The notes beneath the pieces are model-generated. The model made no database searches. It saw nothing but the letters and a program-made list of their open reading frames with translations, and was not told the DNA's origin. A DNA stretch of 64,000 bases, from IMG/VR virus record IMGVR_UViG_3300044695_004869; one strand, 5' to 3'. Position numbers and translations under genes: made by a program. Shown here piece by piece: positions 51,836 through 52,775 of the stretch. This stretch comes from a virus (taxonomy: Duplodnaviria; Caudoviricetes). The first letter of the stretch is position 1; every line of letters starts with the position of its first letter.

Positions 51836-52775
51836 AAAACCTGAGATTACAGTTTTTTGTGAGAACCTTTAGTAGTATTATTGTTTCCCTACTTATCCAC
51901 CATCTTTTGAATGGTATTTCTCAGTGACGATTAGTTAGACCAATCACTCCTTAAGATAACAGTTACTCTCTTATTACTCGACTCTCTCCGAGAATGCCTT
52001 CCCAGTTGGTCCTTGCGGGACTAGAGGTGTTTGGTAAGAATATCGTTAAACTTGCGGTTTAGACGATGCAATGAACGGCTCATTACTATGTAGTCACCTT
52101 TCACTGTTACCTGACGAACACTTTTGCTTAAGTCATATTTAATTATTGGAATAATCAACATTTCCATAAGTTTGTGTTGTGGATTGTAGAAGTAGTGGTC
52201 CGCCACGGGCTCCGTTATCTTTTGAACAACGGAATACTCAACTACTCCTTGAAATGTCCCCATTTCCATACTTTAAGATTACTTCGAGATTAACCCCTTG
52301 GTAGAAGTTTATCAAGGTTAATAACGGCACCACCCGTACATTAACATACCTTTCGGTTTTAAGTACCCTTTAATATTGGAACACGCAATAATGAAATTGG
52401 ATAACTTCATGTTTTGCAATATTCCTACGGGTTATTCCTATTAGTGTCCCCACCTCAATCAGACGACCCACATCGCCCAATCATCTAACCATTTTCCCTA
52501 CAGCGTTGCCCTCGGTACTAAAGGTTAAACGGTATCCCGCTTGTGTACTCAAGTTCGGTTACCCAAACCGCAAATCGGTTACACTTCCGACTCACTTTAT
52601 CCTACTTTCGTAGTTTATTTTATGGACTATACACGGCCCAATATCTTTATCAGTTACACTCAAGCTGCGGACTTTCTGCCATTTACTCGGTGGATAATGT
52701 CACCGACACTTTTGTGTTTCCTGAACGGATAATCTAATTTTTTCAAAGAACGTTTCAGGACTTTTCCTGATTTGT
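51836..52775 (-). ncRNA. Large structured non-coding RNA (~900 nt), possibly GOLLD-class
   Basis: Own TAACTTTG promoter and boxA, higher GC than flanks, no credible ORF, and many short hairpins with GNRA-type loops (CTAC-GAAA-GTAG, ACC-GAAA-GGT, GTCC-CGCAA-GGAC). The family assignment is unverified. Confidence 0.72.

Follow-up and report, generated by a model that had tools for sequence, protein, structure and literature searches.

GOLLD RNAs have been known since 2009, and their cage structure since 2025. The described system most relevant to this study is env-38 GOLLD, an RNA from a marine/lake metagenome that was solved by cryo-electron microscopy (cryo-EM) as a D7 14-mer nanocage (Kretsch et al., Nature 2025, PMC12286853). 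The sequence of the cryo-EM construct is printed in the supplement of that paper, and it served as our reference throughout. Here we analysed a stretch of 64,000 nucleotides (nt) from a virus of the Caudoviricetes, IMG/VR record IMGVR_UViG_3300044695_004869, which we refer to as the window. A first-pass annotation, made from the letters alone, had marked an ornate non-coding RNA gene in the window and proposed that it was either a GOLLD-class RNA or an undescribed large RNA. We placed this gene on the minus strand at 52775..51829, in a block that is poor in open reading frames (ORFs) and enriched in G+C; the elements of the RNA described below are all on that strand. With a probability of roughly 0.9, we read the block as a full-length GOLLD RNA gene of the lake type, of the same subtype as env-38, carried by a large freshwater phage that probably has a Bacteroidota host.

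Identity and architecture of the RNA

An Rfam scan of the full window matched GOLLD (RF02032) at 52249..51838 with 331.4 bits (E = 3.1e-94), more than twice the gathering cut-off of 150 bits. The alignment was untruncated, spanning positions 1–416 of the 416 in the model, and it was the sole strong non-tRNA Rfam match within the block. About six non-standard pairs were flagged in the helices of the GOLLD 3' domain, and posterior probabilities were mostly maximal. Searches with other models, several of which the first-pass annotation had proposed, were negative: ROOL, OLE, RNase P and the group I and group II introns went unmatched, both across the window (gathering threshold) and in 51500–53100 (E ≤ 1). 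Apart from GOLLD, the permissive rescan of 51500–53100 (E ≤ 1) returned one chance microRNA match (E = 0.37). The proposed membership of the GOLLD class was thus confirmed by a match to the whole model, and by this comparison the block is a known RNA class and not a new one. The noted enrichment in G+C was also real, with a content of 0.394 in 51829–52775 versus 0.319 in the whole window and 0.316–0.319 in the flanks.

RF02032 models only the universal GOLLD 3' domain (here 51838..52249, the ring domain of the cage), and the upstream 526 nt (52775..52250) were placed by other means. We compared them with env-38 through short exact motifs and by eye, using a sequence extracted from the PDF that is off by 1–3 positions in places. 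The first residues of env-38 aligned with window position ~52639. Two blocks of the env-38 5' domain, a 19-mer (ACGAAAGTAGGATAAAGTG) and a 22-mer (TGTACGGGTGGTGCCGTTATTA), were each present in one exact copy, at 52611..52593 and 52340..52319, respectively. By these exact blocks, 52639..52250 is the lake-type 5' domain that forms the cap domain of the solved structure. The RNA is therefore built of a 5' domain at 52639..52250 and a 3' domain at 52249..51838, which together with the terminal U run come to 811 nt.

Relatives were retrieved with a pattern from the conserved J13/15 region, which yielded 72 IMG/VR viral contigs of up to 304 kb. The same two-domain RNA was found in all 72, at 68–96% identity overall. 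Identity to the window was 68–96% over RNA positions 121–526 and 69–92% over the 3' domain, and it fell to ~50–90% over the first 120 nt. The nearest named records were two unannotated huge phages, LR745206 (634 kb) and LR756502 (642 kb), each of which carried a full GOLLD by Rfam at ~62% identity; when 20 kb of the window was compared with GenBank phages by megablast, the outcome was a single weak match of 650 base pairs. The nearest relatives differed by domain: identity to locus L016 was 96% over the 5' domain and 80% over the 3' domain, whereas for locus L032 the values were 91% and 92%. Recombination between the GOLLD domains is suggested by this difference and would be in keeping with domains that are structurally independent in the cage.

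The first-pass annotation had called for covariation among homologues, and this was found. RNAalifold applied to 33 non-redundant copies of the 5' domain predicted 103 pairs, 69 of which had compensatory changes. The fraction of cells that were paired was 96.7%, as compared to 36–43% when partners were slid by 1–3 columns and 84% in column shuffles. Likewise, the 69 compensatory pairs compared to 17–33 in the slid controls and to a mean of 39 (maximum 48) in the shuffles. Besides its homology to the env-38 domain, the 5' domain thus has a predicted fold that covariation supports. Folding of the 811-nt core as a single sequence gave a modest z of −2.7 relative to 20 shuffles; for this reason, the case for RNA structure rests mainly on the covariation.

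Of the ten hairpins listed in the first-pass annotation, seven coincide with helices in the Rfam model or in the 5' fold supported by covariation (TCAGGA/TCCTGA, CTAC-GAAA-GTAG, ATGAA/TTCAT, ACC-GAAA-GGT, TAAAC-CGCAA-GTTTA, GTCC-CGCAA-GGAC and AGTAG/CTACT). CGGTT/AACCG is a genuine hairpin given in the wrong register, and covariation favoured GGUUUGG-GUAA-CCGAACU, which is backed by GC/UA/CG/UG exchanges. The pairing of TAACCTTG with CAAG..GGTTA found no support: UUAAC instead partners an upstream GUUAA, in a helix with five compensatory pairs in the 46-sequence fold, four of the five being recovered in the 33-copy fold. Lastly, CGGTG/CACCG is a putative hairpin that falls in a variable leader insert that is common to only 4 of the related loci listed.

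We then considered the elements that join copies of the RNA in the solved cage. A loop occurring twice, TTCAAAAGAT, had been taken to indicate repeated tertiary or intermolecular contacts. Both loops are real, and they are kept as YCAAAAGR over covarying stems. The first is the P14/L14 hairpin (52210..52232; loop UUCAAAAGA), whose CAAAAG core is kept in most of 58 homologues. The second is the P26/L26 hairpin, ACCAU-UCAAAAG-AUGGU (51898..51916), where the CAAAA run is present in 58/58 homologues and CAAAAG in 53/58. In env-38, the A run of L14 makes the A-minor bridge B6 between chains (PMC12286853, supplement), and the adenosines of L26 dock on P14 within the chain, with A763/A764 making bridge B10 between half-shells (PMC12286853). 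The contact role proposed for the repeated loops therefore agrees with the solved structure, where the A-minor contacts of L14 and L26 are formed both inside a chain and from chain to chain.

Two GAAA loops lie within the 5' domain, namely the P2 hairpin (52613..52602) and ACC-GAAA-GGU (52357..52348), which corresponds to L11a. The P2 GAAA loop corresponds to the sole contact that links the 5' and 3' domains of different chains in the cage (bridge B1; PMC12286853). In the 3' half of the RNA, J13/15 (AAGCAAAAG, within 52131..52115) and the L20 hairpin UAAAC-CGCAA-GUUUA (52063..52043) are the predicted partners of bridge B7; their complementarity is the pseudoknot of the first GOLLD description and forms this bridge in the structure (PMC12286853). 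The window and 56 relatives have GC/GC as the J13/15-L20 dinucleotides, the huge phages L001 and L002 have UC/GA, and env-38 has GA/UC, as read from the printed construct. This three-way covariation fits bridge B7.

The L21a hairpin GUCC-CGCAA-GGAC (52024..52006) and the adjoining L21b, ..GGCAU.. (52005..51988), were matched by motif to the self-kissing loops of bridges B8 and B9, respectively (PMC12286853). L21a has a palindromic inner dinucleotide, which reads GC in the window; in 12 relatives it reads AU, and the loops of L001 and L002 contain CG. L21b retains its GC. The L21a palindromes fit a self-kissing bridge B8. The assignments of B6, B8, B9 and B10 were made by motif, and the mapping of env-38 residue numbers is approximate. 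At that level of comparison, our data showed that the loops and junctions joining copies in the solved 14-mer cage are present in this RNA.

An internal linker lies at 52130..52192, and homologue comparison showed it to be tRNA-free and 54–73 nt long in relatives. The equivalent linker of env-38 is disordered and lies inside the cage (PMC12286853). The start of the linker (52192..52170) is conserved as AAUCCAC(G/A)ACACAAAA, that is AAUCCAC(G/A)ACAC, also in the distant huge-phage copies, and it is followed by a variable hairpin with covarying stems. A pairing of AUCCAC at the linker start with GUGGAU after P26 was considered and dropped; env-38 keeps 4/6 of the pairs and shows no compensation.

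Promoter, leader and transcript

The first-pass annotation had given the gene a promoter of its own, a boxA and a downstream terminator. The promoter (52780..52810) consists of TTGACA (52810..52805), a 17-nt spacer and TAACTTTG (52787..52780), which we take to be the Bacteroidota-type −7 element. It was borne out by conservation: of 58 related loci whose flanks were long enough, 56 had TAnnTTTG within 330 nt upstream of the core, for the most part preceded by a TTGAC-type box, and in nearly all related loci it lies 86–156 nt upstream of the core. A start near 52775 would give the primary transcript a leader of ~135 nt (52640..52775), as compared to 86–275 nt in relatives. When 44 distinct leaders were anchored on their promoters, they read in the same order: a few bases, a covarying hairpin, GTTCTTTGAA(A), an insert of 30 to ~200 nt, and then CUGAUAAAGAUAUUGGGCC at the core start.

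In the window, this order begins just past the start point with a boxB-like hairpin, UCAGGA-AAAG-UCCUGA (52755..52770), whose sequence varies among relatives with the pairing kept (e.g., UCGGA-AACG-UCCGA). The boxA-like element GUUCUUUGAAA (DNA GTTCTTTGAAA; 52741..52751) comes next, at a conserved position 28 nt after TAACTTTG. The motif GTTCTTTGAA was present in 50/50 distinct upstream regions, mostly 26–28 or 54–55 nt past the promoter. As a set, promoter, hairpin and GTTCTTTGAA are kept in these 50 regions and also in L001, the distant copy from a huge phage, in which GTTCTTTGAAATATTG comes after the hairpin.

Signals of the boxB-boxA type are known from the Escherichia coli ribosomal RNA (rRNA) operons, rrn, and from lambda nut, where they direct antitermination via NusB-S10-NusA-NusG; rrn operons carry a second boxA in the spacer. 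We compared the phage leader with 16S genes and their flanks from 1 Chitinophagaceae and 41 Flavobacteriales genomes. The pattern GTTC[AT]TTGA occurred 50–220 nt before 16S in 12 of 23 distinct Flavobacteriales leaders, whereas 0.045 would be expected from the remaining sequence of those loci, and the remaining 16S leaders listed held mostly close variants, as judged by eye. Two 16S leaders (L161 and L162) were identical to the phage motif including its tail, GTTCTTTGAAAATATTG (GTTCTTTGAAA(A)TATTG). The 16S-leader motifs follow TAnnTTTG promoters, often with a hairpin between. Hence the boxA call was upheld by sequence and position. Because the plan of promoter, hairpin and boxA is shared, the GOLLD leader appears to copy a host-type rRNA leader, and by analogy rRNA-type antitermination of GOLLD is likely.

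Similar elements were observed elsewhere. Past the 16S start, the Flavobacteriales loci (16S-23S regions of L157–L186) contained GTTC[AT]TTGA another 16 times, and these are probably spacer boxA copies. In the window, the leader of a nearby transfer-messenger RNA (tmRNA; 50790–50825, plus strand) reads TATCTTTG, 13 nt, GTTCTTTAACA (50811..50821), 3 nt, and then the tmRNA 5' end GGGGGU; GTTCTTTAACA is boxA-like, and its resemblance to the boxA of E. coli rrn is closer still. GTTCTTTGACA, at 60966..60956 (minus strand) and 19 nt upstream of tRNA-Leu(taa) in a tRNA array, may be a third such element.

At the other end of the gene, the P27 hairpin AACUG-UAAUCU-CAGGUU (51854..51838; Rfam model positions 404–416) is followed by UUUUUAUUUUUU, and we regard this region (51828..51854) as the probable 3' end. 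The P27 stem covaries, and the U run that follows it (51839..51828) is present in most relatives. The GOLLD 3' end went uncalled in a consensus terminator scan, whose calls inside the RNA were two hairpins that are ordinary helices. The claim of a downstream terminator therefore stood in part, given the P27 hairpin, its conserved U run and RNA contigs that end at 51828–51841, but the structure was too weak for the consensus scan.

Those contigs came from public sequencing data. The window was partly present in 20 runs from 20 studies, 6 of which were RNA libraries. Logan contigs from four metatranscriptomes (river, lake and estuary; four studies) were placed on 51200–53200 at ≥90% identity. 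Their cover ran over 51828..~52673, where the summed word depth lay between hundreds and tens of thousands. In the four metatranscriptomes, smpB (51200–51802) and the upstream genes had zero contig cover, and there was almost nothing above 52674. The depth above 52807 was at most 2.35, and that in the bin 52741–52807, which holds the conserved first 35 nt of the leader, was 0–368, versus thousands on the core. One contig joined 52741 to 52661, as expected for a short-leader relative. Contig ends fell at 51828, 51829, 51836 and 51841, at the U run after P27. RNA of this GOLLD subtype is thus present in freshwater metatranscriptomes, confined to 51828..~52673. The low depth of the leader relative to the core fits a primary transcript that starts at the predicted promoter and has its leader removed, and it suggests that the leader is removed or unstable.

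Gene neighbourhood and possible function

Upstream of the GOLLD gene and on the same strand are an M23 peptidase (54499..53057) and a 50-amino-acid (aa) ORF without a Pfam match (52971..52819), which recurs just upstream of the GOLLD promoter in ~40 related contigs at 33–74% identity. The downstream neighbour, 76 nt away, is smpB (51318..51752, minus strand; 144 aa; Pfam SmpB, E = 2.4e-44). This gene has its own TATATTTG box (51764..51752 region, minus strand) that ends 4 nt before the ATG, implying a leaderless or near-leaderless smpB mRNA and a promoter separate from that of GOLLD. Among the relatives, smpB directly follows GOLLD only in L031, L032 and L061. Convergent with both genes is the tmRNA (50825..51222, plus strand), which Rfam called at full length (RF00023, 77.4 bits) and ARAGORN did not call. 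A downstream 500-aa ORF without a Pfam match recurs in relatives, and the window also contains a phage lysozyme and an array of 17 tRNA genes at 57.6–64 kb.

The tRNA array, tmRNA and smpB agree with the first-pass annotation, which had tied the RNA to a translation-related gene cluster. An opposite-strand tmRNA-like gene was found ≤2.5 kb downstream of GOLLD in 30/43 loci with enough flank, at distances of 123–1967 nt. Because these loci share ancestry, the recurrence is a persistence of neighbourhood rather than a set of independent events. The best matches of the phage SmpB were Bacteroidota proteins, at 46–61% identity; this similarity and the promoter type indicate that the host is probably a member of the Bacteroidota. 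Full-text matches to the boxA string in the literature were all unrelated primer sequences, and in the searchable literature we found no paper linking GOLLD to antitermination or to tmRNA and none on Bacteroidota boxA function. The conserved promoter-hairpin-boxA leader of GOLLD and its recurrent tmRNA neighbour seem to be unreported there.

We propose the following sequence of events. Transcription would start near 52775 from the TTGACA-N17-TAACTTTG promoter, and the leader hairpin and GUUCUUUGAAA would act as a boxB/boxA signal of the rRNA-operon type. Host NusB/S10 and their partners would be loaded, allowing RNA polymerase to make a long untranslated RNA without Rho termination. The leader would then be removed to leave a core of ~811–845 nt, with termination at P27 and the U run. 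Fourteen copies could come together as an RNA-only cage that encloses the linker. Our tentative suggestion for what follows, which we consider possible, is that, while infection proceeds, the cage acts on the translation machinery, where it would hold or shield tRNA-like RNAs or parts of the ribosome. This guess draws on the neighbours (tRNA array, tmRNA and SmpB), on the tRNA embedded in the linker of some GOLLD members, and on a cited ribosome pull-down (PMC12286853). A narrower version is doubtful: GOLLD might be made like rRNA, via Nus-factor antitermination at a host-type boxA, and serve as a partner of phage ribosome rescue, with the cage holding, delivering or shielding tmRNA-SmpB, phage tRNAs or ribosomal parts. 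It would explain why a convergent tmRNA stays beside GOLLD across a whole group of large freshwater phages.

Several points weigh against parts of this account. That the RNA multimerises is suggested by the conservation of motifs relative to one solved homologue, and the cage mapping uses the PDF-extracted env-38 sequence with its offsets of 1–3 positions. The function of boxA is read from sequence and position. The terminal hairpin is weak (five pairs) and went uncalled in the terminator scan, and in a subgroup of relatives (L009, L010, L014 and ~15 other loci) a tRNA-Met begins 11–18 nt after GOLLD. The GOLLD 3' end may therefore be made by processing; that is, in the tRNA-Met subgroup, RNase P cleavage and not a terminator may define it. 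The metatranscriptome contigs pool many related phages and cannot give RNA ends, strand, level or a single molecule. The missing coverage of the leader may partly reflect leader divergence, and the gap at 52674–52740 is partly the variable insert. The link to translation comes from neighbourhood, in which the 30/43 loci are not independent events.

The competing reading that fared best is that the role of GOLLD is unrelated to translation. In that case the RNA would be an anti-defence decoy or sponge, or a scaffold for other cargo, and the clustering would reflect stable-RNA genes that share promoters and processing. We regard this as plausible, at somewhat less than even odds. Consistent with it, 13/43 loci are without a tmRNA close by, and only 4 loci have smpB next to GOLLD; the stable-RNA genes here share a style of promoter and boxA, which could be enough to keep them together; and our literature search found no functional study of GOLLD. 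However, GOLLD lies near tRNA genes in unrelated lineages, including Lactobacillales, mycobacterial tRNA clusters and lake phages (PMC12286853, PMC6582537), and the linker-embedded tRNA and the cited ribosome pull-down (PMC12286853) are likewise easier to place under a role in translation.

A second alternative accepts GOLLD but takes GTTCTTTGAA to be the binding site of a phage regulator or a processing signal, its likeness to rRNA leaders being a mimicry of promoter context without antitermination. The motif is short and AT-rich, and copies with one mismatch are not enriched in the window (6 versus 4.6 in shuffles); yet the exact 11-mer GTTCTTTGAAA occurs a single time in 64 kb, at a conserved place. 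A processing signal would fit equally well with a leader that is seemingly removed from the mature RNA, and we found no NusB/S10 binding data for a Bacteroidota boxA. On the other hand, the spacing from the promoter is fixed (26–28 or 54–55 nt) in most relatives despite variable leaders, the same motif with the extended tail is present in the 16S leaders L161 and L162 and before the huge-phage GOLLD L001, and the related GTTCTTTAACA immediately precedes the tmRNA. We therefore judged this alternative unlikely and retained antitermination at a boxA as the working explanation of the leader.

The other choice offered by the first-pass annotation, an undescribed class of large structured RNA that merely resembles GOLLD, was rejected and has hardly any probability left. 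The Rfam model does leave the 5' 526 nt uncovered, and the total length of ~945 nt exceeds the 833 nt of env-38. But the unmodelled part aligns with the env-38 5' domain through the exact 19- and 22-mers, the surplus length is the variable leader, and the full RF02032 model was matched at 331.4 bits versus 150, a strong GOLLD match being what that annotation had named beforehand as making the RNA known. A protein-coding or decayed coding region is just as improbable, and the description of the block as ORF-free holds in substance: ORFs of 30–82 aa occur on both strands, but none is longer, the 82-aa frame (52269..52021, minus strand) stays open in only 4/58 homologues, and substitutions in the helices are compensatory.

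Comparison with known systems

The locus leaves the GOLLD class unchanged, and its boxA leader and tmRNA neighbour are modest clues to function. The transcription unit is defined, and its host-type promoter and rRNA-style boxA suggest how an untranslated RNA of 0.9 kb could escape Rho. The subtype shows high word depth in river, lake and estuary metatranscriptomes, and the recurrent tmRNA neighbour, joined by SmpB in four loci, narrows the candidate cargos or partners.

The RNA shares with ROOL its large size, its phage origin near tRNA genes and, as predicted here, the formation of RNA-only cages with an internal linker (for ROOL, PMC12286853). Unlike GOLLD, however, ROOL had no Rfam match in the window, differs in sequence and fold, and forms an 8-mer. 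The likeness to rRNA operon leaders concerns the order of promoter, hairpin, boxA and long untranslated structured RNA, as well as a boxA sequence equal to the 16S-leader motif of Flavobacteriales. In contrast to those leaders, the one described here drives a phage RNA and not rRNA, and the binding of Nus factors is putative.

The closest correspondence is with env-38. Both RNAs have the full 3' domain and a 5' domain of the same type with identical 19- and 22-nt blocks, together with the P2 and L11a GAAA loops, the A-rich L14 and L26, complementary J13/15 and L20, a palindromic L21a, an AU-rich internal linker, and a phage origin near tRNA genes. They differ at J13/15-L20, which is GC/GC here and GA/UC in env-38, and in their neighbours, which are smpB and tmRNA here and only tRNA-Met for env-38. 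The present locus also has a promoter-proximal leader of 135 nt with a hairpin and boxA, which lies outside the env-38 construct and is undiscussed in the papers that we found.

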